Shown: piece by piece, positions 12,837-43,349 of the stretch
Layout of the letters: every line of letters begins with the position of its first letter
Numbering within the stretch: position 1 is the stretch's first letter
Source: Candidatus Shapirobacteria bacterium
Lineage (GTDB): Bacteria > Patescibacteriota > Microgenomatia > UBA12405
Direction of reading: 5' to 3'
DNA: 43,986 nt
NCBI GenBank assembly: GCA_003250375.1
Contig: QKGR01000019.1
Location: 1-43,986, forward strand
Program-made: the position numbers and the translations under genes
Notes under the pieces: model-generated
Database searches by the model: none
The model's input: the letters and a program-made list of their open reading frames with translations, nothing else
What the model was told of the DNA's origin: nothing

Positions 12837-13538
12837 TTATTCGGAAGCGTTGACTTGTGATTGGATAAAAATATCTTTGAAATTAGCTATGTGATTTTTG
12901 AGATATTTGATGTCGTCGTCAGATAGTAGATTTGTGTCGTTGGCTAGTTTTAATAAGTTTTCAAACTTAGAAAGTGAATAAATATCTAATTTGAGTTCCT
13001 TTGATAAGAAATCGTCGATGCCGTAGCTGTAGATACTAATGAAGGATAGATTGTTGTAACCAAGACTTCGAAGGTATTTTAGTGATTTTGACAAAGTGAG
13101 GCCTTTGGCTAATACATCATCAATAATAATGATGTGAGAATCTTTTGATGGGGCTATACCAATAACTTTTCTGAAATCACCATAGGACTTTGATTCTTTT
13201 CGAAGAAAAAATAAGGGAAGTTCAAGTTTGTCAGCTAGAGCGGCTGCAAAATAGGAACCGCCGCTTTCTAAACCACAGATAGTGTCGATTTGTTGATTCT
13301 TGAGGTGTTCTGTAATTTTTGATATGACGATTTTTCGATTGTCGGGGTTGGTGACAAGCTTCTTGATGTCGATGTAGATAGGGGAGAAGAAGTTGGGGGT
13401 TGGCTCGTAAAGTTTGTTTTTTGAGAAGCCAAATGAGCCTGGAGTATTGAGGATGATTTCTTCAATGGGAAAGTTGGAATTCATATTTTTTCGATTATCT
13501 AAAGGACGTATTTTTACATAGTTATTGATAATTGTCAA
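12837..13538 (-). CDS. phosphoribosyltransferase (orotate-PRTase-like)
   Basis: PRPP-binding loop HIIIIDDVLAKGLTLS, FFSPIYIDIKKL and GLESGG, as in type I PRTases and PyrE. Confidence 0.7.
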   Translation of the reverse strand: MTIINNYVKIRPLDNRKNMNSNFPIEEIILNTPGSFGFSKNKLYEPTPNFFSPIYIDIKKLVTNPDNRKIVISKITEHLKNQQIDTICGLESGGSYFAAALADKLELPLFFLRKESKSYGDFRKVIGIAPSKDSHIIIIDDVLAKGLTLSKSLKYLRSLGYNNLSFISIYSYGIDDFLSKELKLDIYSLSKFENLLKLANDTNLLSDDDIKYLKNHIANFKDIFIQSQVNASE

Positions 13539-13548
13539 AAGAAGGATG

Positions 13549-14184
13549 TTAAAGGGTGTTCATATGGATCGATTCGGGGAAGAATTGGTATTTTTCGGTA
13601 ACTATAAACATAGCATGATTGTCGTCAACTTCTTGTAATTTTCCTGAAGCATCGGTAATTTTGTTGATGTCCCACCAGCGGTGTTCGAAGCCGAGAATGG
13701 TAAATTTGCGGTCGTCGTGGGAGTAGTGTTTTTCGGGGTCGGCGATGACAACTTCGTTTTTCATGGTGTCGATGTGGGTGACAATGCTATAGTGGCCGGC
13801 ATCGTCGTCGTCATCCTCGTAGTAGTCGTCCTCATCGTCCTCGTCGTCGGGCCAGTCGAATAAGCCTTGCCATTCGACGCCGACAGGATAGTGGTGTTGG
13901 TTGACGATGCTGGAGAGGTCGTTGAGGCTTGAGTTGAATTTAAACCAAAATTGGAGCTCGTTGGGGAAGAGACGACTTACGGCGAGGGCCAGATCGTTGA
14001 TGGTGGCGCCGTGGACTTTGATTTTGTCCTCAATGCCGGCGGCAGCGACGATTTGAGCTTGGCTAACTTCGTAGCCGAGGAAACCCAAAAGCATTTGAAT
14101 TACGGCCGGTCCACAGTTGTAGACATTGTCTTGGGAAATTCTTTGGAGCGTAGGAAAGTGTTTCCTATTTAAGCTGTTTGGCAT
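13549..14184 (-). CDS. papain-like (C39-like) cysteine peptidase domain protein with a poly-acidic insert
   Basis: YNCGPAVIQMLLGFLGY (catalytic Cys context) and a downstream GHYSIV (His). It contains the insert DDEDDEDDYYEDDDDD. It overlaps the ddl-like stop by 20 nt. Confidence 0.5.
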   Translation of the reverse strand: MPNSLNRKHFPTLQRISQDNVYNCGPAVIQMLLGFLGYEVSQAQIVAAAGIEDKIKVHGATINDLALAVSRLFPNELQFWFKFNSSLNDLSSIVNQHHYPVGVEWQGLFDWPDDEDDEDDYYEDDDDDAGHYSIVTHIDTMKNEVVIADPEKHYSHDDRKFTILGFEHRWWDINKITDASGKLQEVDDNHAMFIVTEKYQFFPESIHMNTL

Positions 14185-15280
14185 ATTTGGTGAGCAAAGA
14201 GGCGACGATGTCCTCGAAGGCTATACCATGCATGGCGGCGACCTCGGTGAAAGGAAGTCCCATGTCGGGGCCGAAAGCGGTGTTGGGGTTGCTGTCGGTG
14301 AAATAGGGAATACCGGTTAGTTCGTCGTAGCGGACATCAAATTTGGCGTAATCTTTGTGCTGGAGAGCGTTGAAGGCTCGGACAGACAAACGGGCAAGCT
14401 TGGTCTGAAGCGGCTCGGAAACATGAGTATATTTGTAGGCTCGGGCGTCTTCGTAACTTTCGATGGAGGTGAAAAAATGTTTGCCGTCGGGCTTGGTTCT
14501 AAAGATTTTTTGGCCCATCCAAACGTGTTTTTTGGTACCATCATCGAAAACACAGACGGTAATTTCGGGTCCGTCGATGAACTGTTCGACGATAACAGGT
14601 TGTTTGTAGGTGGTAATCATTTTGTCGACTTTACGCTGAGCGTCGCGGAGAGTTTCCTTGACGGCTTTGTTGTCGATGCCAACGGAACCACCAGAACCAC
14701 AGAGTTTGACGATAAGGGGAGTGCCGAGGTCTGATTGGACAGCTGTACCAGCACGACGAATGTATTGGAAGGCGGGAGTGGGAACGTCGTAGGCCATTAG
14801 AAGTCTTTTGGTAAGATTTCTGTCGTTGCCAATAACCATGCCGGTCATGCCAGCGCCTGTGTAGGGAATATTGGATAATTCCAGAGCAGCAGGAACTGAA
14901 GTTTGAAGAGTGTCTTTACCTTTGAGGGTGTCAACTAAATTGAGAACAACGTTGGGTTTGTCGACCAAAAGATTAGTAAGAAAGTATTGATTTCCAGGAA
15001 TGGCTTTGACATTGATACCGAGTTTTTTGATTACTTCGGCGACTTCGGCGGCGCGATCCTCAACTTCAACTTCGGCTTCATAGGAATCCTTGGTGGGGAA
15101 CCATTCGCGCTCGACGTGAGAATAGGCGACGGTAACCAAATCGAGTTTTTTAAGAGCTTGTTTGTCGATATTGAGATGATATTTTTGTCTTTTTGGAGTG
15201 GACGGGGCTTTGCTGGCTTCAACTACTTTTTCTGGAGAATCGTTAATTTCAGGCTTTTTTCTATTTAAAATATTGAACAT
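14165..15280 (-). CDS. ddl: D-alanine--D-alanine ligase family ATP-grasp enzyme with an N-terminal extension
   Basis: ATP-grasp layout (IVKLCGSGGSVGI, VIVEQFIDGPEITV, the C-terminal FTDSNPNTAFGP region). It is adjacent to the murF-like gene. Confidence 0.7.
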   Translation of the reverse strand: MFNILNRKKPEINDSPEKVVEASKAPSTPKRQKYHLNIDKQALKKLDLVTVAYSHVEREWFPTKDSYEAEVEVEDRAAEVAEVIKKLGINVKAIPGNQYFLTNLLVDKPNVVLNLVDTLKGKDTLQTSVPAALELSNIPYTGAGMTGMVIGNDRNLTKRLLMAYDVPTPAFQYIRRAGTAVQSDLGTPLIVKLCGSGGSVGIDNKAVKETLRDAQRKVDKMITTYKQPVIVEQFIDGPEITVCVFDDGTKKHVWMGQKIFRTKPDGKHFFTSIESYEDARAYKYTHVSEPLQTKLARLSVRAFNALQHKDYAKFDVRYDELTGIPYFTDSNPNTAFGPDMGLPFTEVAAMHGIAFEDIVASLLTKYAKQLK

Positions 15281-21042: not shown

Positions 21043-22677
21043 ATGGTTGCTGATGCTTTAATAAATGTTTTAAATGCTGACGATCTAATTGTGAATTCTC
21101 AGAGAAGGGGATTTGATTTAGATGAATATAAAGAAAAGACTGGGCATGATAAAGTTCACATTTCACCAGCGAGGCTTAGTGAACACTATACTGGACGCAA
21201 GAGGCTCGATAGTGATTTATTAGAAAACTGTAAAAAGATTAATGAAAAGATTGGTACTGTGAAGCATAGGAATAATCCTGATCAACAGGAATATTTAGAT
21301 AGCCAATTAGATAAGTATGTCGTTGAGCATCCACAATGGGAGCTCAGGTTGAGAAATGGAGGGATTGTGGATGTTTTGGGTTTTGGACTTGAGGTAGCAA
21401 AAGCAGGTATGGGGCAACATGATAGTGGTTTTAATCCAGATTTTATAACAGAGGCTTTTGATGTCGATAATCCTGCGCGTACTAAATGCGCTGTGTTTAA
21501 TATGATGTATCAGGTTATTTGTGAACGTACGATTGGTAAGTTTAATCCTGCATTAGGAGAAAGTTATTCTTTTATTCATACTGGTAGTGCCTTTGCGTTG
21601 GATTTACCTAGAAATAAGAATGATTACATAAAAATGATTAGACATGCGTTTGTGACTTTGATTTCAGAAGACGATGATGGAAGATTGAGATATACCCCGA
21701 TTGATCCTTATCATGAGGAGTCGGGCACTTCGGTTGAACAGAAATTAGATTTTTCAGAAACAAGATCACTTGATTCTTTGGAGATGGTTCTTAATTTAGT
21801 GTTTGCTGATTATTGGAATGGGTATAGTTTGGATAAAGCAGGTAAACAAGTTAAGGGTGTTGCATTGACGGAAATGGTGAAATCCGCTCCTGATGCGGTT
21901 AATGCTGGAGAAGTTGCTTTATTGTTGAGTTATCAATGGAGAGGGGTGTTTGAAGACAGTACAAAGGCTCGAGTAAATTTTGAAAGTAAAAGAAAGATCT
22001 TAGCTGAACGAGTACATAATTTCCAAATGGAGTTAGAACGATTTAAATCTGAAGGGAGAGATGTTGATATGAAAACAAGTTCATATTTACGAACTTTAAG
22101 GGATCACTGTGTTTCAATGTACAACCGACAGAATGAAAATTATCAGGAATTAAAACACAAAATGGAATTTGTTGAAAATAATAGAACTGAGTTTAAAGAA
22201 TCAATGAAAACAGCGGTAGGTGGCTTGATGGAAGAAATAGTAAAAGGTGGAGAGGTTAATTCTAAGGCCGCTTTAATATTCTTTGATTTGGTTGATAATA
22301 TTGGAAGTTTTGGAATAGAAATGGATGAAGAAGATTGGGTGAAGATTGTAGGATTTATTGAATCCCAGAGAGCGGAGAACCTAGATGAGTGGAAAAAAAC
22401 AATGTCTCCAGGTGCAAGACGAGAGTGGAAAAGTTACTTAAGAAGGCATTATGAAAATACTTGGGGTACTCAACCTGTTGAGACCGTTGTGTTGAAGGAA
22501 GATAATCTGCAGGTCGATGAAAATGATTCAAGATACGCTTACACACTGTATCGAGCCCAGGTACTCAAATTGATCAGTGCAGCTGGTGTGAATAGCTGGA
22601 AGAAATTTTTACCAAAAAGTCCTCCTGAAGGAAGTTACTCTGACTTGATGGTTAGACTAATACAACAGGAAGATTAA
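21043..22677 (+). CDS. hypothetical protein (544 aa)
   Basis: Long uninterrupted ORF with an A/T-rich -10-like sequence just upstream of the ATG. No family recognised. Confidence 0.55.
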   Translation: MVADALINVLNADDLIVNSQRRGFDLDEYKEKTGHDKVHISPARLSEHYTGRKRLDSDLLENCKKINEKIGTVKHRNNPDQQEYLDSQLDKYVVEHPQWELRLRNGGIVDVLGFGLEVAKAGMGQHDSGFNPDFITEAFDVDNPARTKCAVFNMMYQVICERTIGKFNPALGESYSFIHTGSAFALDLPRNKNDYIKMIRHAFVTLISEDDDGRLRYTPIDPYHEESGTSVEQKLDFSETRSLDSLEMVLNLVFADYWNGYSLDKAGKQVKGVALTEMVKSAPDAVNAGEVALLLSYQWRGVFEDSTKARVNFESKRKILAERVHNFQMELERFKSEGRDVDMKTSSYLRTLRDHCVSMYNRQNENYQELKHKMEFVENNRTEFKESMKTAVGGLMEEIVKGGEVNSKAALIFFDLVDNIGSFGIEMDEEDWVKIVGFIESQRAENLDEWKKTMSPGARREWKSYLRRHYENTWGTQPVETVVLKEDNLQVDENDSRYAYTLYRAQVLKLISAAGVNSWKKFLPKSPPEGSYSDLMVRLIQQED

Positions 22678-22738: not shown

Positions 22739-23650
22739 ATGTCAGTAGATAACAATACTAATAAACCCCCGTTTGACGGTTTTAAGCCTATTACATTTGA
22801 ACCAGGAGAACTGAGCGAAATACCAGTTGGTGCTCCTAGTGAACTTAAACCATATGCAGGAAGTTTTACGCCTTTAGAAGATTTTAAAAAAGTGGATGCT
22901 AAACCGACAGAAGGAAACCTAGAGGGAGGTGCTGAATTGGTGGAGGAAGGAAGAAGGTTGGTAGATTCTATTGCTGAGACAATGTTTGATTCAGAAGATA
23001 GATTGAGGAGCGCTGCTACTCATTATCTTGACACATATACTGATTATCATGGAGGAGAAAGCTCGGCTACGGCAGATGTTGGAGTTGAGCCGGTGCTGAA
23101 CAATTTGAATAATCATTTGGCGATACATGGTGAGGTTGGCGATGAGTTTGCTAGAGTAGTAGAAAGTGTTCAGTCGGGAGTAGAGCAATCGATGAATTTA
23201 CTTAGAGAATTGAGGGATAGCCCGGCTGTCGATGGAAGGGCTATGTTGGCAGGTACTGAGATTCAGGAGTTGTATAAGCATATGGTGGCAACCGAAAGTG
23301 TTGATGAAGCTAAAAGATTGGCTGGTGAAATTAGTGCTATAATCGAAAGGGAAGGAAATTTTACGGATAGTAGTATAGAGAATTCTACGACAGCAGTATC
23401 TGTGGTGGAAGAAACCGCAGCAAATCAGAGCAATAGTTTTGAAGAATGGAGAAGGGAATATGGTGAAATTCACGAAGATAGACCAGTAGAAACATTAAAT
23501 GCATTCTCATTAGATTTAAGAGCACTTCAAGAAGTTGCACGTAGCAAAGGTGTGGAGTTTGGGGATAGAACTCGCTACTTATCCGGATCTGTGTCTGAAA
23601 TGAAAGCTACGTGGGATCGGTTTGAGTTGAAATATTTTTCGGAAAAATAA
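22739..23650 (+). CDS. hypothetical acidic protein (303 aa)
   Basis: ORF flanked by the perfect 49-bp direct repeats. No family recognised. Confidence 0.55.
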   Translation: MSVDNNTNKPPFDGFKPITFEPGELSEIPVGAPSELKPYAGSFTPLEDFKKVDAKPTEGNLEGGAELVEEGRRLVDSIAETMFDSEDRLRSAATHYLDTYTDYHGGESSATADVGVEPVLNNLNNHLAIHGEVGDEFARVVESVQSGVEQSMNLLRELRDSPAVDGRAMLAGTEIQELYKHMVATESVDEAKRLAGEISAIIEREGNFTDSSIENSTTAVSVVEETAANQSNSFEEWRREYGEIHEDRPVETLNAFSLDLRALQEVARSKGVEFGDRTRYLSGSVSEMKATWDRFELKYFSEK

Positions 23651-23838: not shown

Positions 23839-24291
23839 ATGTTGTGTCCTTATTGCGGTTTTGATGAGTCGAATGTGGTGGAATCGAGGGATGCTAAGGA
23901 AGGAAGAGCCACCCGAAGAAGGAGAGAGTGTGTGAAGTGTGGAAAAAGATTTACAACATACGAGGAAGTGGGAAACATTGAATTGAAAGTACAGAAAAAA
24001 GACGGACGAATCGAGGATTATAAAAGAGAGAAGTTGGAAAAGTGTATCGACAAGGCTTGTTGGAAATTGAGCAGTGAAGAAAAGAACAAACTATTGGATG
24101 AAATTGAAATGAGGCTTTTAAATTTTAGCTCGGTGGAAATTCCATCGAGGGAGATTGGAAGGATTGTGATGGAAAAACTTAAAGATTTTGATGAGGTGGC
24201 GTACATTCGTTTTGCCACGGTTTATTTGGATATCAAATCAATTAATGATTTTCAGGAATTAGTTAGTAATTTTAAAAAGAAAAATAAATAA
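23839..24291 (+). CDS. nrdR: transcriptional repressor NrdR
   Basis: MLCPYCGFDESNVVESRD...RRRRECVKCGKRFTTYE zinc ribbon plus an ATP-cone. SD AGGAGG upstream. Confidence 0.93.
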   Translation: MLCPYCGFDESNVVESRDAKEGRATRRRRECVKCGKRFTTYEEVGNIELKVQKKDGRIEDYKREKLEKCIDKACWKLSSEEKNKLLDEIEMRLLNFSSVEIPSREIGRIVMEKLKDFDEVAYIRFATVYLDIKSINDFQELVSNFKKKNK

Positions 24292-24293
24292 AA

Positions 24294-26885
24294 ATGAATC
24301 AAGACTTAATGCAGCAAACAAATTTAGGAAAGAGTACTTTGGAAGGGTTAATAGAGCCGAAGTTGTCGGACAATGCAAGATATATTGCAGAGACTCGATA
24401 TGCTATGAAAAATGAATCGGGGGAGACGACAGAAAAAGCTAAAGATATTTTTTGGAGAGTGGCCTACAACATTGCCAAGGGTGACCTTGGATTTTTGGAT
24501 CAAAATTTGGGAGACAACAATAAGGAGGAGTTGGTACTTCAACAAGCCAAAGTGTTTTATGGAGCAATGGCCGAACAAAAGTTTTTTCCAAATACACCAT
24601 GTTTGGTGAATGCAGGCAAAAAACATCAACAGCTTTCAGCTTGTTTTGTGCTGCCTGTGGACGACTCGATGGAGGGGATTTTGGGGACAATGTCGGATAT
24701 GGCATTGATTCACAAGTCCGGAGGGGGGACTGGTTTTTCGTTCACCAGACTACGACCTTATGGTGATTATATTTCGACTTCGGGCGGAACAACGGTAGGG
24801 CCAGTATCCTTTATGCAGGCCTACAATGATGTGACTTCGCAAATTAAACAAGGAGGAGTACGACGAGGAGCAAATATGGGGATGCTGTCGATTGATCATC
24901 CGGATGTACTAAGATTTTCGGTGGTAAAACTGGATGAATATAGCTTGACAAATTTCAACATTTCTTTGGCGGTGACCAATGCTTTCATGGATCGCGTTGA
25001 ATGCGATAAATCTTTTTGTACGGATGATTCAATTCCATCTGAGGTGGTAGATGAAATTAGAATTGCAGAACAGAATCGCGATGTGGATGCCCGACTAAGA
25101 GAAATCGAGGCTGGAGTAAAGAAACTTTATGATTGGGCTGAGGCCAAAAATGAAGGCGAGGGCTATGAGCTGATTAATCCAAGGACAGGAAAAGTAGCCA
25201 AAAAATTGAATGCCTACAAAGTGTTTAATTTAGTAACAAGATTGGCTTGGCAATATGGAGATCCGGGATTGGTGTTCATCGACAGAATGAACGATGAGCA
25301 TAGCAACCCAGTACCCAAAATGGGTAGAATTGAGGCGACTAATCCTTGTGGAGAGCAACCACTACTGCCTTATGATGCTTGTAATTTGGGAAGCATAAAT
25401 GTAAGTCGATTTGTAATTGAGACGCATAGTAATGCGTCTGTACAGGAGAAGGATATCGATTGGGATGATTTGGAAAGAGTGACAAAAGAGGCGGTGCATT
25501 TCTTGGATAATGTGGTGGAAGTTAATGAATTTCCGGTCCAAAAAATTAGGGAGATGGTGTCCAAAACCAGAAGAATTGGACTAGGGGTGATGGGTTTTGC
25601 TGATATGTTGTTTAAGCTTGGGGTGCGCTACGATTCGGAGGAAGGAATTGAGTGGGCCAAAAAGATAATGAAGTTTATCAACGACAAAGCTCATGAAGCA
25701 ACTGTAGAGTTGGCTAAAGTTCGGGGAGTATTTCCGGCTTGGGAAGTGTCGGTGTTTGAGGGGACTGAATATAGACCACGTAATATGGCTTTGACTACGA
25801 TTGCTCCAACGGGAACAATTTCGATGATTGCCGATGCTTCGTCGGGAATTGAGCCGGTGTTTAGTTTGGGATACCAGAAGAATACGGTGGAAGGAAAGAC
25901 TTTGTATATTATGAATCCGGTGTTTGTGGAGGAATTGAAGAGAAGAGATTTATATTCGGAAGGCTTGTTGGATAAGATTGTGAAGAATGGCGGCAAATTG
26001 GATGGTATTGAGGAACTACCAGATGATATTGTGGAGGTGTTTAGAACAGCTTTGGAAATTAGTCCGGAATGGCATATTAAAGTGCAGGCAGCCTTCCAAG
26101 AATATACCGACAATGCGGTGTCCAAAACAATTAATTTCCCCAAAGAAGCTACGTTGGACGACGTGAGAACGGCTTATTTGCTGGCCTACAAATTGGGAAC
26201 TAAGGGAATTACGATTTATCGATCGGGAAGTCGAGAGAAAGAGGTGATTCAGCAAGTGAAAAGTGACAAAAAAGATGTCAGTTCTTCAGATGTCAGATCT
26301 CAGGAAAACAATGTTGTGTGGCAAGAGAAAAAGAAGACTCCAGAAGCAGCCAGGGGAGTGCGGCTAAGAAAAGCTTGTGATATGGGAAAAGTGTACACAT
26401 CGGTATTTTTTGAAGAAGGGGATGGTCCAGTGGAAGTGTTCGTAACTTTGGGTAAATCGGGTGGATACATGGCAGGAGCTGCTGAGGTGACTGGGCGATT
26501 GGCTTCATTGGCTTTGAAATATGGGGCATCCTTGGAAGAAATTGCTGAGGAATTGGTAGGAATTGCTTGCGGCCAAAAAGTTGGATTTGGGCCCCAGGTA
26601 GTGCTGAGTATGTTTGATGCGGTGGGAAAGTCGCTTTTGGAGGTGTCCAAAGGCTCGCAATTGCAGCTATTTGAGGAAGAAAAGGTGAAGTTGGTCCTAC
26701 CTCAGGAAGAAGCAGCAGTGCAAGAGGCTGTGCCGGTGCAGGAAGTGTTGAGTGCGATTAGAAATAAATCGGCTGAGACGGAAAGTAAATTTAGTGCTTG
26801 TCCGGATTGCGGTTCGCCTTTGTATGCTGAAGAAGGCTGTTTTAAATGTTCAAATGCATATTGCGGATATTCCAAATGCTCTTAA
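24294..26885 (+). CDS. nrdJ: adenosylcobalamin-dependent (class II) ribonucleotide reductase
   Basis: Active-site region NPCGEQPLLPYDACNLGSIN, TIAPTGTIS, and the C-terminal Cys cluster CPDCGSPL...CFKCSNAYCG. 863 aa. Confidence 0.93.
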   Translation: MNQDLMQQTNLGKSTLEGLIEPKLSDNARYIAETRYAMKNESGETTEKAKDIFWRVAYNIAKGDLGFLDQNLGDNNKEELVLQQAKVFYGAMAEQKFFPNTPCLVNAGKKHQQLSACFVLPVDDSMEGILGTMSDMALIHKSGGGTGFSFTRLRPYGDYISTSGGTTVGPVSFMQAYNDVTSQIKQGGVRRGANMGMLSIDHPDVLRFSVVKLDEYSLTNFNISLAVTNAFMDRVECDKSFCTDDSIPSEVVDEIRIAEQNRDVDARLREIEAGVKKLYDWAEAKNEGEGYELINPRTGKVAKKLNAYKVFNLVTRLAWQYGDPGLVFIDRMNDEHSNPVPKMGRIEATNPCGEQPLLPYDACNLGSINVSRFVIETHSNASVQEKDIDWDDLERVTKEAVHFLDNVVEVNEFPVQKIREMVSKTRRIGLGVMGFADMLFKLGVRYDSEEGIEWAKKIMKFINDKAHEATVELAKVRGVFPAWEVSVFEGTEYRPRNMALTTIAPTGTISMIADASSGIEPVFSLGYQKNTVEGKTLYIMNPVFVEELKRRDLYSEGLLDKIVKNGGKLDGIEELPDDIVEVFRTALEISPEWHIKVQAAFQEYTDNAVSKTINFPKEATLDDVRTAYLLAYKLGTKGITIYRSGSREKEVIQQVKSDKKDVSSSDVRSQENNVVWQEKKKTPEAARGVRLRKACDMGKVYTSVFFEEGDGPVEVFVTLGKSGGYMAGAAEVTGRLASLALKYGASLEEIAEELVGIACGQKVGFGPQVVLSMFDAVGKSLLEVSKGSQLQLFEEEKVKLVLPQEEAAVQEAVPVQEVLSAIRNKSAETESKFSACPDCGSPLYAEEGCFKCSNAYCGYSKCS

Positions 26886-26943: not shown

Positions 26944-27468
26944 ATGTCTGTAACAACCAAAACCGGTGATGATGGAAAAAGTAGATGGAGCCGCCTACAC
27001 CAAGGCTCCGGTGTGCCGAAGTGGGAAAAGATTGAAGTTGATAAGGATTGTGATTTGTTGGAAGCAGTCGGGAGTTTGGATGAATTGCAGGCGATGCTTG
27101 GGGTGGTGAAATTGAAGAATATTATGATAGGAGCGCCGCTGACCGATATTCAGAAAGATTTGTGGCAAATGATGGGTGTGTTGGCTTATGAAAAAGAGTG
27201 GAATGAAGTTGGGGATAGAATCGAATGGTTGGAAAAAGAAATTAAGGAAATGGAGGAGTCTTTGCCAAAAATTAGTGAGTTTGTGCTGCCTGGAGTGAGC
27301 GAAGTAGAGGCTGAATTAAATTTGGCTCGTACAATTTGCAGGAGAGCAGAAAGAAGATTGGTGGCTTTGTCCAAAGAGACTGGGTCTGGTAAAGTTGATA
27401 ATAGTTTGTTGATTTATATAAATAGAATGTCCGATTATTTATTTATTTTAGGAAGAGTTATTTTGTAG
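26944..27468 (+). CDS. pduO: PduO-type ATP:cob(I)alamin adenosyltransferase
   Basis: TKTGDDGKS N-terminal motif, LARTICRRAERRLV, and YINRMSDYLF. An extra roughly 20-aa insert follows the N-terminal motif. Confidence 0.85.
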   Translation: MSVTTKTGDDGKSRWSRLHQGSGVPKWEKIEVDKDCDLLEAVGSLDELQAMLGVVKLKNIMIGAPLTDIQKDLWQMMGVLAYEKEWNEVGDRIEWLEKEIKEMEESLPKISEFVLPGVSEVEAELNLARTICRRAERRLVALSKETGSGKVDNSLLIYINRMSDYLFILGRVIL

Positions 27469-27492
27469 GGACAGGTCGAGCCCCGTCCGTAC
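27465..27492. repeat. REP-like imperfect palindrome beginning with GTAG
   Basis: GTAGGGACAGGTCGAGCCCCGTCCGTAC overlaps the pduO stop. By hand alignment it shares about 22 of 28 positions with the palindrome region at 2322-2349. Confidence 0.5.
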
Positions 27493-27625
27493 GTTAAGGA
27501 AATAATTTAAAAATTTGAATCAGGTGTGAATCCTGAGCTGTGCCGCAATCGTGAAAGATCGCTTTCGTCCCTTTGGGACTACAGCGCATCGAAGCCGAAG
27601 CCTTAAATTCCGCCTCATCGGCGGA
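27493..27625 (+). promoter_or_regulatory. candidate cobalamin riboswitch
   Basis: AATCAGGTGTGAATCCTGAGCTGTGCCGCAATCGTGAAAG (27517-27556) follows the conserved cobalamin-riboswitch core. GAAGCCGAAGCCTTAA (27591-27606) is B12-box-like. TTAAGG (27494-27499) can pair with CCTTAA (27601-27606). The usual GGGAA is TTGAA here. Confidence 0.5.
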
Positions 27626-27663
27626 CTTGCATTGAATGGCAAGCTTTCGAGCAAAAAGTAATA

Positions 27664-28716
27664 ATGAGAGTAAGTACAAAAGAAAACCTAAATGGATTGG
27701 CTGCATGGTTGGTGGCAGCTGGACTTGTTGGTAGGCGGGTGAGGATAGACGATGATGATTTGAAATTATTGGGTAGTGGAAAAGCTGAAGAGGAGATAAG
27801 GCCAAGGTTTAAGAAGGCGACGGATGGACATTTTTTTGATGTAAATTCTAATTCTGCTGAAGAAGTGGCTAAAGTTTATAAAGAGGAGCGAAGAACTAAT
27901 AAGCCCGTAGAACGAGTAACAAGCTCTTCTCCGGTGGGAAGAAACGATGTCGATTTTAGTGAGTATAATGTGCATGCAATGGCAGAATGGGAGGCAACCC
28001 AAAGATCTTTTGATTTGGCTGAACAAAACTACAATTTAATTTTTTGGATTAGTGCTGAAGATGGGGCAATGGGCTTGTCACCAGAAGAGGCTAAGGAAAA
28101 AGGGTGTGTGTATAGCGACGGAAGGTTGAATATTTATTTCAAATCCGTAGACGCTAATGGCAATGTGGCTTTGAAAGGTAAGCATTTACCTTTATCTATT
28201 AATAGATTCTTATCATTTGAACTGGGGAAGCGGCTGGTGGAAATGGGGGGGATTACTCTTGGTAAGATGGAAGATGTTGAAGATCTGAGAGTGCAACCAA
28301 TAGGTTTCCGTTTGGATAATTTGGATGATTGGATAAAGAAATGTAGAGAGATGATGCCAGAGATGGGTGAGTTCTGGGATACGATTGAAAAAGGTGACGA
28401 TGTTCGACATCAGGAGGAGATGGAGAAGGTGGTATCTGAAGTGATGAGAAGATCTGGTGGGGATAATAGATGGTTTCAGATGGAAATGATGAGGAGGGGT
28501 TTTGAAATTAATACGTCTGGAAATCACGGAATGGGATATTTGGATAATGGAGTGGGAGGCCTCGTGCTAAATTTTAAAATTGAAAGGATTGGAGGAATGT
28601 TTTTTACTGAACCGAAAATTGATAGTAGAGGTAATTTGGTTTGTCCTGTTTGTGGTGCGAAAGTGGCGAATGACGATGTGAAATGTCGAGAATGTGGAAT
28701 AGGACTTAAAAAATAA
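27664..28716 (+). CDS. hypothetical protein with a C-terminal zinc ribbon (CPVCGAKV...CRECG)
   Basis: 350-aa ORF immediately downstream of the riboswitch-like leader. No family recognised. Confidence 0.55.
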   Translation: MRVSTKENLNGLAAWLVAAGLVGRRVRIDDDDLKLLGSGKAEEEIRPRFKKATDGHFFDVNSNSAEEVAKVYKEERRTNKPVERVTSSSPVGRNDVDFSEYNVHAMAEWEATQRSFDLAEQNYNLIFWISAEDGAMGLSPEEAKEKGCVYSDGRLNIYFKSVDANGNVALKGKHLPLSINRFLSFELGKRLVEMGGITLGKMEDVEDLRVQPIGFRLDNLDDWIKKCREMMPEMGEFWDTIEKGDDVRHQEEMEKVVSEVMRRSGGDNRWFQMEMMRRGFEINTSGNHGMGYLDNGVGGLVLNFKIERIGGMFFTEPKIDSRGNLVCPVCGAKVANDDVKCRECGIGLKK

Positions 28717-32793: not shown

Positions 32794-35700
32794 ATGATGA
32801 AATTTGGGATTAAATTTTGGGATTGGGTTAAGAATAAACCATTATTGACTGGGTTGATAATACTGCTAATTGTGATTACAGTGATGTCGATAAAGCCAGG
32901 ATTTTATTTGATGGGTTGGGATAATTACTCGTCGTATCTTAATTTAAATCAGAGTATCTTTAGAACCTTATTTGCCACGTGGAGAGAGTATAGGGGAGTA
33001 GGAGTGCCTTCGGATGCTGAGGTGACTGACGTTTTTAGATTGATTTTTGATTGGATAATACGTTGGGTGGTGCCAGAGGGATGGTTGGATCAGATTTATT
33101 ATATGGTGGCGTTGTGGTTGGGTGTGTTGGGAACATATTTGTTGGGGGTAAAAATAGGTAAAAATTTTGTGGCCAAGGATTGGAGTAGAAGAGGATTGGA
33201 CTTGTTGGGTGGATTGAGTGGTTTTTTGTATTTATTTAATTTAAATACTTTGTCTGTTTTTTATTCACCAATTATTCCTTTTACAAATAGGTATTATGGT
33301 TTACCGCTAGTTCTGTGGGCAGTGCTAAATCATGAGGAGAAACAAAGCAAGAAAAGCCTTTTGGTGCTGATGCTTATAGTTGTGATAACTTCGGGAAGTT
33401 TTATTACACCGACGGTTGTAATCACGACATTGTTGGCTTTGGGAATCTTTTGGTTGTTTAATTTGAATATAAAGAAAACAATTGCTTATGGTGCATTGTT
33501 CTTGGCTTTAAATGCTTTTTGGATGTTGCCGTTTGTGAATTATAGTAAAGAGAAGTCGGCATTAGTACCGTTGGCTAGGACTTTTGTAGAGATTAATGAA
33601 TCGACACTAAATCGTCCGGCGGACACATTTGACTGGACGAAACAAGCGTTGATGTATCCAAGCTTTTTGGATATAAATTTCCCGACTATTAATAAGGTTG
33701 AGGCAAATCTTCATCCTGACTTGGATAATTTTCAAAGTCAGACAGGACAATTATGGTTGATGCTTTTTGTAGTATTTTATGTGCTTGGTTCGGGGCTGAT
33801 TGTGATCGGATGGAAGAAATATATAAAAATGCTATGGGTACCTTTGTGGATATTAGTATTTTTATTTTTATCGATGAAGGAATATGGTCCAGGAGGAAGT
33901 GCGTATATATGGCTTAAGGACCATATACCTTATTTTGGAATAATCTTTAGAATTTCAGATACTAAATTCCATGCATATATAAATTTAGCGGGAAGTTTGG
34001 CTGGAGGATTGATGCTGTCTAGTTTAATTGTCAAATTAGGCAAGATAAAATACTTGAAATTTGCAGCTGCTCTTGTAGTTTTGGTTTTGGTGGGGTATGC
34101 TGTGAATTTCAGAAGTTACTTTAACGGAAATATGCTAGGTTTTTATGTGTATACAGTGATGCCGCAGGCTTATAAAGAAATTGCTAAGGTGGTAAATAGT
34201 GATAAGAGTAGTGGAAAATTGCTGCATTTGCCGATGAGTAATCAACACCATTATTGGAGATCTTTTGATTGGGGGTATATTGGATCGGCGTTTTTTAATT
34301 TTATGATCGATAGGCCGTATGTTGATATGACTTTCGAGCCAGCGAGTATGGAGAACGTGTTTGTCGATAGTAGAATTACGCAGTTGTTGGATAATCAATA
34401 CCTAACAGATGGCGAAGCTAGTAAGCGGAGTGAGGCTGAGAAATTTTTGAAGCTAATGAATCAGATGGGTGTGAGCTACATTATGGTGGATAATTCGATT
34501 GGTTCTGAAGTTGATGTTCGGAATTTGGTGTATACCAGTAAACAGTATGTGGCACGATCGGAATCAATGTTGAAAAGATTGGAGTCGATGGGGTTAGTGG
34601 AAAGGGTTGGAGGCTACAAAATAAATTTGAATGAAATGCTTGAGAGTTATAAAAAGATTTATCCGGTAACAAAAACAGGTTTGCCTGATGGAACTTTTGG
34701 AGATGAGGAAGTGATTCTTTATAAGGTGAAACAAGCAAAGAGTATATTTGAATTTGTACCGGCAGCTGTGGAGATAGATAGTTATTTGGATAATTTGGCT
34801 GAGACAGACTTGGAAAGTTCTGAGATGCTAATGAGGCAAAATAAAGAAGTAGCTGGAATAGTAGAGCCGATGAGTCGGCAGAATCATGAGGTTGAGATTG
34901 GCGAGAATCAAATTTCTTTAAATTATTCGGTGATGGCCGGTAAATATGTGGTGACTACTGGGGATGGAGATGCCGCTGTGGTGGAGGTGCAAGGTAATAT
35001 GAAGGGGAACAATTTAGAATTAGATTTCTATGATAGATATCTTCCGAATATAAATGGGATTGAGTATAGGAAGAAGGCTGGTTCGGTGGAATTTAAGAAT
35101 ATAAAATTAAGTGAAATAGGGGACTATAGCTTAGAAATTGAGGGTATGGAAGTGAACTTGGAGGGAGTAAATGAGAATAACCAAACATTGGCTTTACTTC
35201 TTTTGCATGGAGTAGATCAAAATGTTCGCTTGTACAAAAAAGAAATGAGTGAAGTGGTGGGTTGGGATGATTTTAGCGAAACAGTACCACTTAATTGTTA
35301 TGGTCCGGGCTTGAATGGTTTTGAAGGGAAAATTAGTGAAGTTGGTGGAAAATTGGAATTGGTAGCATCGAATGGTTCGGCATGTTCGAAGTCTTTGGTG
35401 GCTAGTGGCAGCGAGAGGATAAAGATTAAGATGAAGGCTAGTGCGGAAGTAATAAGTAAAGAGATGCCGAGTGGACTGCTTGGTAAGGCGATGGATGGAA
35501 TTGGTACGGTGGTACCTGAAGGTTATTGGTGTGTAAAATCGTCAGGAGAAGTGAATTGTAGTAATAAAATGCGACAAATTAAGTTGGGAAGTGATGAAAG
35601 AGAGTATGGTAGCGGTTGGTTGGATAATAGCTTGGGCCAAGCAGAAATAACTGTAGGCGTGGTTGCTAGTGGGGGAAATAAATTTAAAGAAAGGATTGGT

Positions 35701-36717
35701 GAGGTGGAAGTTGAGGGCTTTGATTTGGTGAGTGAAGAAAAAGTAAGTTTGGACAGGGAATTGGTTAAACTTGAGATTGATTTGAAGGATAACTTTACAA
35801 TAGGTATTCCAAATTTTGAGAATAGTAAGGGAAATACGATTAGTGAAAATGGTTGGTGGAGTATGCCTTTGGAGCAGTGTCGCGGAGGAGAGAATAGGCT
35901 GCAAAGAGATATTGATGGAGTGACGGTGAATTTAATGAATAATTGTAGTGTGTATATGGCCTTACCTTTTGATTACACGGGCAAATATCCATATTTATTA
36001 GCATATTCATATTGGTTGGGTTCTGGCCAGCAACCAGTGTTGGTAATGGGTAAGGAGGGTGACGATTACTTAGTGGAACGAGCATCGTTGTTGCAAGGAT
36101 ATCCTGGGATTGTGGAGAAAACACTCGCTGATCCTGAGGACAAGAAGACAATTGGACAAATTGAGAGTAAGTTGGAAAATATAGAGCTGATTGGTGCTTC
36201 AAGATTGCTGACCAGCGATGCAAAATTGAATAAGAGTGAGGTTGAGGCTAATATTCACATATTTCAAGACAGTGACAATGAAGCAGTAATGGGATTGAAA
36301 GACTTAAAAATTATGGAGTATCCACAGTCTTGGAAAGAGCTTAGGCTGACACCAGTTGCTGGAGCTGAGCAAGACTTCGAATTACCTAATAATTTTGAGT
36401 TTAGACAAATTTTGCCATCGGTGTGGTTGTTGAATATGGCAGAGATAAACAGTAAGGCTTTGTTGTTGTTTAGACAAGGTTACGACAGGCAATGGGGAGT
36501 ATATAAGAATTTGGGTGATTTGATTCTAAACAAAACAGCGGCTGTAAACAGTCGCTGTGATGGGATAAATAATTGTTTTGAAATCAATCAGGGCGGAAAG
36601 TATATCGTAGCTTATTGGCCGGAAGTACTGAGTATGGCTGGTTGGACAATTACTCTGGGGACAGTTTTCTTTGGACTAATCTGGTGGAAAAGATCGAAGA
36701 AAACAGAAGATAAATAG
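32794..36717 (+). CDS. very large multi-pass membrane protein with a large extracytoplasmic region and a C-terminal TM anchor (GT-C-like glycosyltransferase candidate)
   Basis: 1307 aa. About a dozen hydrophobic helices in the first 450 aa or so, then a long soluble region, then a terminal helix (WTITLGTVFFGLIWW). The architecture is reminiscent of AftD/YfhO-type GT-C enzymes, but the assignment rests on architecture only. Confidence 0.55.
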   Translation: MMKFGIKFWDWVKNKPLLTGLIILLIVITVMSIKPGFYLMGWDNYSSYLNLNQSIFRTLFATWREYRGVGVPSDAEVTDVFRLIFDWIIRWVVPEGWLDQIYYMVALWLGVLGTYLLGVKIGKNFVAKDWSRRGLDLLGGLSGFLYLFNLNTLSVFYSPIIPFTNRYYGLPLVLWAVLNHEEKQSKKSLLVLMLIVVITSGSFITPTVVITTLLALGIFWLFNLNIKKTIAYGALFLALNAFWMLPFVNYSKEKSALVPLARTFVEINESTLNRPADTFDWTKQALMYPSFLDINFPTINKVEANLHPDLDNFQSQTGQLWLMLFVVFYVLGSGLIVIGWKKYIKMLWVPLWILVFLFLSMKEYGPGGSAYIWLKDHIPYFGIIFRISDTKFHAYINLAGSLAGGLMLSSLIVKLGKIKYLKFAAALVVLVLVGYAVNFRSYFNGNMLGFYVYTVMPQAYKEIAKVVNSDKSSGKLLHLPMSNQHHYWRSFDWGYIGSAFFNFMIDRPYVDMTFEPASMENVFVDSRITQLLDNQYLTDGEASKRSEAEKFLKLMNQMGVSYIMVDNSIGSEVDVRNLVYTSKQYVARSESMLKRLESMGLVERVGGYKINLNEMLESYKKIYPVTKTGLPDGTFGDEEVILYKVKQAKSIFEFVPAAVEIDSYLDNLAETDLESSEMLMRQNKEVAGIVEPMSRQNHEVEIGENQISLNYSVMAGKYVVTTGDGDAAVVEVQGNMKGNNLELDFYDRYLPNINGIEYRKKAGSVEFKNIKLSEIGDYSLEIEGMEVNLEGVNENNQTLALLLLHGVDQNVRLYKKEMSEVVGWDDFSETVPLNCYGPGLNGFEGKISEVGGKLELVASNGSACSKSLVASGSERIKIKMKASAEVISKEMPSGLLGKAMDGIGTVVPEGYWCVKSSGEVNCSNKMRQIKLGSDEREYGSGWLDNSLGQAEITVGVVASGGNKFKERIGEVEVEGFDLVSEEKVSLDRELVKLEIDLKDNFTIGIPNFENSKGNTISENGWWSMPLEQCRGGENRLQRDIDGVTVNLMNNCSVYMALPFDYTGKYPYLLAYSYWLGSGQQPVLVMGKEGDDYLVERASLLQGYPGIVEKTLADPEDKKTIGQIESKLENIELIGASRLLTSDAKLNKSEVEANIHIFQDSDNEAVMGLKDLKIMEYPQSWKELRLTPVAGAEQDFELPNNFEFRQILPSVWLLNMAEINSKALLLFRQGYDRQWGVYKNLGDLILNKTAAVNSRCDGINNCFEINQGGKYIVAYWPEVLSMAGWTITLGTVFFGLIWWKRSKKTEDK

Positions 36718-41668: not shown

Positions 41669-41741
41669 GGGCCCATAGCGTAGTTGGTAGCGCGTCCCCA
41701 TGGCATGGGGAAGGTCAGGGGTTCGAGTCCCCTTGGGTCCA
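41669..41741 (+). tRNA. tRNA-Ala (anticodon GGC)
   Basis: Hand-folded cloverleaf. Acceptor GGGCCCA/TGGGTCC with G3:U70. D stem GCGT/GCGC. Anticodon stem TCCCC/GGGGA with loop ATGGCAT. T arm AGGGG-TTCGAGT-CCCCT. Discriminator A. CCA is not encoded. Confidence 0.85.
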
Positions 41742-43278: not shown

Positions 43279-43349
43279 GCGGGTGTCGTTCAATGGTAGG
43301 ACTGCGGTCTCCAAAACCGCCAATAGAGGTTCGATTCCTTTCACCCGTG
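43279..43349 (+). tRNA. tRNA-Trp (anticodon CCA)
   Basis: Hand-folded. Acceptor GCGGGTG/CACCCGT. D stem GTTC/GGAC. Anticodon stem GCGGT/ACCGC with loop CTCCAAA. T arm AGAGG-TTCGATT-CCTTT. Discriminator G. Confidence 0.85.

Follow-up and report, generated by a model that had tools for sequence, protein, structure and literature searches.

The window analysed here (that is, the whole 43,986-nucleotide (nt) stretch of contig QKGR01000019.1 from Candidatus Shapirobacteria bacterium, a member of the Patescibacteriota) is a bacterial chromosome fragment of 40.8% G+C in which Pfam matches give the gene order nrdR, nrdJ (encoding a class II, B12-dependent ribonucleotide reductase (RNR)), pduO, X, a SIMPL protein, thyX and glyA. 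NrdJ is the sole evident B12-using enzyme, PduO is its cofactor-activating enzyme, and X is an open reading frame (ORF) whose product is a conserved protein of 350 amino acids (aa). Our subject is the gap between the pduO stop codon (27466-27468) and the ATG of X (27664), which an initial annotation had described from the letters alone as a cobalamin-riboswitch-like leader. The gap has the 195 nt that were claimed for it, Pfam matches NrdR, a class II RNR and Cob_adeno_trans among its neighbours, and no B12 transporter or biosynthesis gene is recognisable in the window, all in agreement with that description. We consider it very likely that positions ~27494-27663 constitute a compact class-II cobalamin riboswitch (RF01689, env8-like) that lies within the nrdR-nrdJ-pduO-X transcript and controls only the last cistron (Table 1).

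Table 1. Genes and leader elements of the nrdR-nrdJ-pduO-X block in window coordinates (P, helix; R1, covariance model built from related leaders).
Feature	Position	Strand	Support
nrdR, Zn-ribbon and ATP-cone repressor; opens the conserved nrdR-nrdJ-pduO-X block	23839..24291	+	Pfam PF22811 6.6e-19, PF03477 2.9e-18
nrdJ, class II (B12-dependent) ribonucleotide reductase	24294..26885	+	Pfam Ribonuc_red_lgC 7e-133, lgN, TSCPD
pduO, PduO-type ATP:cob(I)alamin adenosyltransferase	26944..27468	+	Pfam PF01923 (Cob_adeno_trans) 8.9e-43, full length
GC-rich hairpin directly 3' of the pduO stop	27469..27488	+	Fold -8.0 kcal/mol
TTAAGG, possible 5' strand of an outer closing helix P1/P3 with CCTTAA 27601-27606	27494..27499	+	Forms in constrained fold
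J3/4 GAA (27517-27519), then P4/L4 (27520-27536)	27517..27536	+	Aligned to model R1
P5 (TGT/GCA) with L5 GCC	27539..27547	+	G[TG]GCCGC in all loci
P6, TCG 27549-51 with CGA 27596-98	27549..27598	+	Covariation among loci, model R1 alignment
B12-box-like GAAGCCGAAGCC	27591-27602	+	
J6/3 (AG) and CCTTAA, end of the B12-box-like AGYCnGA(G)CC segment	27599..27606	+	Relatives' segment aligns to RF01689 consensus AGUCcGAGcGCC
Two hairpins in the aptamer-P13 linker, TCCGCC-TCATC-GGCGGA and CTTGC-ATTGAATG-GCAAG	27609..27643	+	Fold -15.6 kcal/mol
P13 regulatory hairpin CTTT-CGAGCAA-AAAG	27644..27658	+	Second-best R1 match in window; ends 5 nt before ATG
ORF X, 350 aa, conserved protein with C-terminal CPxC...CxxC zinc ribbon	27664..28716	+	

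Close relatives of X are few (12 among 5.8 billion protein clusters), and the DNA fetched around these and around more distant relatives comprises 17 distinct loci, here designated by L numbers. The question raised by the initial annotation, whether homologues of X are always preceded by the leader, was examined in these loci: the same leader lies between pduO and X in 17/17. Wherever a locus reaches back beyond the leader, a Cob_adeno_trans gene immediately precedes the leader and X (L004 begins just upstream of the leader, and only the 3' end of pduO is visible there), nrdR and a class II RNR precede pduO wherever the contig extends further (with nrdR at the same block position in L001, L002, L022 and L024), and the synteny is retained at X identities as low as 34% (L016), 26% (L022) and 23% (L024). 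In L002 (5045-7980), the class II RNR is of a different type (an ATP-cone plus PF17975 RNR_Alpha, 755 aa) and a DUF1653 gene lies between RNR and pduO; as this locus keeps pduO, the riboswitch and X despite its different RNR, the link goes with the use of B12 and not with a single RNR lineage. The pduO-X gap of most loci consists entirely of an 80-90-nt element with a constant layout, namely GAA, a hairpin, GCnGTGCCGCnA, a small helix, AGCC..AAAT, CTTn-CGAGCAA-nAAG, 3-8 nt and the ATG.

Two observations concern how this element appears in the databases. The called starts of the X homologues P0004 (L001 8001-8078) and P0006 (L002 8001-8066) fall inside the riboswitch, giving spurious N termini (MKKGVIPSQCRYG..., MIPSQCRYG...), and the real ATG follows the P13 hairpin. 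Moreover, contigs L003, L005, L006, L007 and L019 have their first base 65-162 nt before X, within the aptamer or slightly upstream of it; a near-identical riboswitch core common to co-occurring strains may have broken the assemblies at this point.

The relatives identify the class of the leader. RF01689 (AdoCbl-II) matched 7/7 of the relatives tested over its full length at 28.6-38.8 bits, with L013 (38.8) and L015 (37.9) above the gathering score of 36.5 and the other five at 28.6-35.7. The Rfam comparison that the initial annotation had proposed gave a divided answer, in that the window copy stays below the thresholds whereas the leaders of its relatives match RF01689, two of them above gathering. 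Twelve related leaders, but not the window, went into a covariance model (R1), which was then used with filters off to scan the 43,986 nt on both strands; it found one strong match in the window, at 27505-27609 (36 bits, E≈3.9e-10), the runner-up being the P13 hairpin (27641-27658, 11.6 bits) and everything else scoring below 10 bits, and the full-length alignment (27505-27666) reached 46.2 bits. Over 153 kb of the loci, R1 gave one match per locus, each time between pduO and X, and loci outside the training set scored highly (L022 83.6, L024 75.8, L016 71.6 and L019 67 bits). The window copy thus counts as a member of the cobalamin clan (Rfam CL00101) through its homology to the leaders of its relatives (R1, 36-46 bits). 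The cobalamin-riboswitch identity first proposed for it is supported; as for the type, the element belongs with class-II RF01689 and not with the btuB-like class I that had served as the comparison.

Covariation supports the same structure. In a MAFFT alignment of the 12 compact leaders, again with the window excluded, 91.6% of the cells of helices P4, P5, P6 and P13 are paired and 7/15 pairs show compensatory changes; helices slid along the alignment were 32-54% paired, and 0/500 shuffles reached the observed value. An 18-sequence model-based alignment (A5), which leans towards its model and misplaces the 3' strand of P6 in the window, gave 95.5% paired cells and 8 pairs with compensatory changes. 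A MAFFT alignment with the window included misplaced the same strand, and the local R1 alignment was used for the window. P4 occurs among the loci as CTAGG/CCTAG, TCAGG/CCTGA, TCGAG/CTCGA and AGGG/CCCT (compensatory changes in 4/5 pairs), the outer pair of P5 is A-U in 13 loci and U-A in 5, P6 takes the forms CGG/CCG, CCG/CGG and TCG/CGA, and the inner pair of P13 is A-U, U-A, G-C or C-G depending on the locus. P13 adjoins the ATG in every locus, ending 3-8 nt before it, and in L024 its 3' strand is GGAG. The loop sequences L13 (CGAGCA) and L5 (UGCCG) are nearly invariant among loci and, on inspection, could pair through U-A, G-C, C-G, a bulged A, C-G and G-C (that is, 5 bp). The initial annotation had made its proposal depend on a conserved structure in relatives and on a covariance-model match; both a conserved covarying structure and a match to a cobalamin-clan model were found.

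The window copy keeps all invariant core columns. Its P4 is TCAGG/CCTGA with a T-loop-like L4 (TGTGAAT), and the segments that are invariant or nearly so in 15-18 sequences (the L4 T-loop (GGUGnnAAUnCC), J4/5-L5 (GCnGnGCCGC) and the B12-box-like AGYCnGAGCC) are all present. The 40-nt core string reported by the initial annotation is there, although at 27518-27557 and not, as given, one base earlier at 27517-27556, and GAAGCCGAAGCCTTAA lies exactly where it was placed (27591-27606). The CGCT..GTCCC-TTT-GGGAC..AGCG hairpin said to follow the core was likewise found and is stable (-14.5 kcal/mol for 27552-27595); it is an insertion in the P6 loop, which in this copy carries a 34-nt hairpin insert (27557-27590) and the B12-box-like GAAGC, and in which model R1 places a 38-nt insertion. 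At this L6 site L019 has a separate insertion of its own, with GCAA as the capping loop. The linker between aptamer and P13 measures 45 nt in the window, as against 10-12 nt in the compact relatives and 30 nt in L016, where it contains one hairpin. P13 by itself is a weak 4-bp hairpin (about -1.6 kcal/mol).

Two further features of the initial annotation fared less well. TTAAGG and CCTTAA do lie at 27494-27499 and 27601-27606, but the closing helix proposed for them is hardly distinguishable from chance (-6.0 kcal/mol versus -3.7±1.8 for shuffles, 13% of which equal it), and a closing helix rises clearly above chance only in L004 and L015, most relatives having no equivalent. The initial annotation listed TTGAA in place of the usual GGGAA as a deviation; because most relatives share the loss of GGG, it is not a defect of the window copy. 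GC-rich hairpins between the pduO stop and the aptamer, as listed for the window in Table 1, also occur in L016 (1236-1290) and L022 (7890-7927), and these two loci have two such upstream hairpins in common, CCCGAT...ATCGGG and GGGGATAAACCCC. Hairpins at this site could be an alternative P1-P3 region, a messenger RNA (mRNA) end or a processing site.

Set beside characterised systems, the RNA is very likely a further member of an already described family, the class-II cobalamin riboswitches, and one that bears insertions. With RF01689 (AdoCbl-II, formerly AdoCbl-variant; exemplified by env8HyCbl) it shares a compact four-way core without a large P6 extension, the L4, P5, P6 and B12-box-like consensus, and a short P13 at the start codon with a loop that could pair with L5 and leave a purine unpaired (PMC5028336). 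It differs from that family in several respects: the window adds the 34-nt hairpin in the P6 loop and a structured linker of 45 nt, compared with 7 nt in env8; most copies of this leader group have no clear P1/P3 or J1/3, with GGGAA cut to GAA; the element occupies an intercistronic site behind pduO instead of a transcript's 5' end; and it is found in AT-rich metagenomic bacteria of small-genome style rather than in marine sequences. The class-I family RF00174, represented by the E. coli btuB leader, has GGUGnnAAUCC, GCnGnGCCGCAA and the B12-box in common with the window, and the btuB sequence quoted in the initial annotation is exact, with a 100% match inside the annotated riboswitch in 5426/5426 complete E. 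coli genomes. In contrast to class I, however, the window has no multi-helix P6 extension (P7-P11) but a single 34-nt hairpin, and most relatives have none.

In a characterised class-II switch, a cobalamin-dependent kissing loop forms between L5 and L13, the latter containing the ribosome-binding site (RBS), L13 has strictly conserved unpaired purines, and docking of the kissing loop is slower with longer J1/13 linkers (PMC5028336). By analogy with that switch, bound cobalamin would stabilize an L5-L13 kissing loop in the present leader, and the kissing loop would close off the initiation region of X; translation of X would then be confined to times of cobalamin scarcity, with nrdJ and pduO made regardless, and the switch would gate only the last cistron of nrdR-nrdJ-pduO-X. 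We suggest that X is likely to be under such a B12-dependent translational OFF switch. X is presumably co-transcribed with pduO, because the compact loci leave no room for a promoter. A Shine-Dalgarno-like motif lies no more than 25 nt from the start codon in only ~6/23 confidently identified window genes (strong ones precede nrdR, glyA and one NTP-transferase gene), and as most window genes are without one, occlusion of positions -6 to -20 would plausibly suffice to block initiation of X. As a matter of speculation, the two linker hairpins may keep P13 near the aptamer despite the 45-nt linker.

Several results weigh against this interpretation. Rfam at gathering thresholds matched only two transfer RNAs (tRNAs) in the whole window and did not match the leader, and in a permissive Rfam scan of 27400-27720 (321 nt) RF00174 (Cobalamin) covered 27480-27619 over its full model length at 17.4 bits (E=0.018; gathering 31.5), which taken alone is suggestive only, with RF01689 scoring lower still. 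The leader is not unusually stable (minimum free energy (MFE) z = -0.91), the homology-constrained fold (-49.6) is less favourable than its unconstrained MFE (-54.9), and a plain MFE fold did not recover the aptamer. No conserved outer P1/P3 helix or J1/3 element is demonstrable across the loci; covariation cannot test the L5-L13 pairing, because both segments are invariant; and the 45-nt linker is expected to slow docking unless the two hairpins compensate. Two other Rfam matches were set aside as chance, as they fall on the spacer and insert hairpins: Acido-Lenti-1, and the Pseudomonas P9 small RNA on the minus strand at 27605-27668 (23.4 bits versus 43), which almost certainly reflects the CCGCC/GGCGG linker hairpin read in reverse.

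Among the other explanations for the RNA, the foremost is that the leader is a cobalamin riboswitch with a different mode of action (that is, transcription termination, mRNA decay or an ON switch), which we regard as improbable. GC-rich hairpins do separate aptamer and P13 in the window and in L016, P13 is very weak on its own, and the RBS of X cannot be pinpointed given that most window genes have no Shine-Dalgarno motif. Nevertheless, no terminator-like site was found on the plus strand of the leader, no U tract follows the spacer hairpins, the 10-12 nt from aptamer to P13 in the compact relatives leave no room for a terminator, and the conserved feature is P13 adjoining the ATG.

Variant subclasses of other riboswitch classes have changed ligand. 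Such a change in a descendant of the cobalamin aptamer could explain why the GGG of GGGAA and a clear P1 or J1/3 are missing in most copies and why most copies score just under the RF01689 gathering score, yet the L4, J4/5-L5, P6 and B12-box-like segments remain close to the RF01689 consensus and in each locus the element comes straight after genes for a B12-dependent RNR and a cobalamin adenosyltransferase. Class-II members in which no J1/3 can be identified have been described (PMC6158498), so the missing J1/3 has precedent; we judge a changed ligand to be even less probable than a different mode of action. Least credible of all is that the resemblance is due to chance or that the window copy has decayed or lost its function, as its low Rfam scores (17.4 bits for RF00174 and less for RF01689) and its three insertions relative to the compact form might suggest, because it keeps every invariant core column and is matched at E≈4e-10 by an independent model, its P13 and L13 are intact and correctly placed, and its insertions fold on themselves as hairpins at sites that accept inserts in L019 and L016 as well.

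The gene behind the proposed class-II switch encodes a protein of no known family. An exhaustive profile search of 1.84 billion representatives gave ~45 full-length members of the X family (280-350 aa), other matches being to the zinc ribbon only; E108, S130, Y150, R209, W238, G289 and the ribbon residues C327, C341 and C344 are invariant among 44 members, and E74, W128, R154, H288 and C330 nearly so. X itself scores 21.6 and 18.8 bits against the zinc ribbons PF13248 and PF13240 (cut-offs 27 and 25), and PF13240 is matched by 24/44 members, with no Pfam family other than zinc ribbons matched by any of the 44. Comparison with NCBIfam and with PDB sequence profiles (using profiles of 13 and 44 sequences) yielded no match beyond the ribbon, and two scans for relatives of X in named species genomes found none. 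An AlphaFold model based on the 44-sequence alignment is confident (predicted local distance difference test (pLDDT) 86.7, predicted template-modelling score (pTM) 0.72) and has an alpha/beta core (60-215), a helical bundle (220-277) and the C-terminal ribbon, but Foldseek found nothing significant for it in the PDB (two models) or BFVD. The structure prediction proposed in the initial annotation delivered a confident model, the searches listed here gave no known relative beyond the ribbon, and the annotation's statement that X has no recognisable family apart from that C-terminal ribbon is borne out by Pfam, NCBIfam, PDB and Foldseek alike.

Specific identities considered for X were rejected. 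PAS, LOV, GAF and TagF-like folds reached at best a Foldseek E of 0.078, with TM-scores of 0.17-0.24. Source databases call the family members "hypothetical protein" or, without support, "rubrerythrin"; this latter name, given to P0005 by JGI, is contradicted by the absence of a rubrerythrin or ferritin-like four-helix domain in 44/44 members, with the ribbon alone matching. Further ideas were rejected by inspection only. A membrane protein was one of these, as X has no transmembrane segment (maximum 19-residue hydropathy 0.94). A canonical DxHxxG...SxL...GG B12-binding motif was dismissed for wrong spacing and fold context, and PD-(D/E)xK nuclease and P-loop kinase assignments were also dismissed. 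The last idea dismissed in this way was that X substitutes for a missing zinc-finger tail of NrdJ, as NrdJ has its own Cys-rich C-terminal tail (CPDC...CFKC...C...C).

On balance, we think that X probably founds a new protein family with a cobalamin-related function and is the one gene under riboswitch control in a minimal B12 regulon (nrdJ, pduO and X) of uncultivated small-genome bacteria. Its regulation and the 17/17 synteny suggest that it acts under cobalamin limitation. The logic would be that of the cobalamin riboswitches on nrdAB/nrdEF, btuB, btuFCD and metE (that is, a B12-scarcity gene under a B12 OFF switch in a user of NrdJ), although X is none of these genes and encodes a soluble 350-aa protein without a family or fold match. 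X may be a cytoplasmic factor for scavenging, processing or delivering corrinoids to PduO and NrdJ, or may provide a B12-independent deoxynucleotide bypass. Of the two we tentatively prefer the first, with X scavenging or handling corrinoids for PduO and NrdJ, a role we infer from regulation and synteny and against which it must be said that neither the sequence nor the model of X bears any sign of corrinoid binding.

Cobalamin riboswitches are known to repress B12-independent isozymes, and by this precedent X could instead back up the supply of deoxynucleotides without B12, or regulate DNA metabolism when NrdJ lacks its cofactor. We see this as rather unlikely. The neighbourhood of X in the window and the related loci is rich in deoxynucleotide genes (including thyX, tmk, tdk, dcd, prs and glyA by Pfam), and its conserved polar residues (E108, S130, Y150, R209 and H288) look enzyme-like; however, X resembles no RNR or salvage enzyme in sequence or fold, and it always adjoins pduO. 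No result separates this proposal from corrinoid handling.

The remainder of the window includes rplJ, rplA, rplK, nusG, pyrG, murein ligases, ddl and many nucleotide-salvage genes, together with an IS200-like Y1 transposase ORF (2070-2543; PF01797, 2.4e-06) between a nucleotidyl-transferase gene and pyrG, and the two tRNA genes (41669-41741 and 43279-43349; Rfam 64.7 and 59.1 bits). Two ORFs just upstream of nrdR (21043-22677, 544 aa, and 22739-23650, 303 aa) have no Pfam or NCBIfam match, and a 1307-aa ORF directly 3' of glyA (32794-36717) has no Pfam match; L002 and L022 carry unannotated ORFs of ~870 aa at the position equivalent to the latter, on the opposite strand. A PhdYeFM/ParE toxin-antitoxin pair lies just upstream of nrdR in the otherwise divergent loci L001 (2921-3411) and L022 (3627-4126). 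L024 has a 544-aa ORF (12837-14471) that is annotated only as Thy1 (ThyX) and is about twice the usual length, which may be a fusion or a duplication.

In summary, this leader indicates that riboswitch copies with insertions escape the Rfam thresholds, and that an intercistronic position and hairpins in L6 and the J1/13 linker are compatible with a class-II aptamer. A literature search found no paper joining Patescibacteria, cobalamin and riboswitch, and to our knowledge B12 acquisition and management in small-genome, host-dependent bacteria are poorly known. Riboswitch-guided discovery has earlier identified B12 transporters and handling proteins. In the same way, X is a sharply defined lead (that is, a conserved and confidently folded family under what is very likely a B12 sensor in 17/17 loci) and offers a concrete, testable candidate for B12 management in small-genome, host-dependent bacteria.

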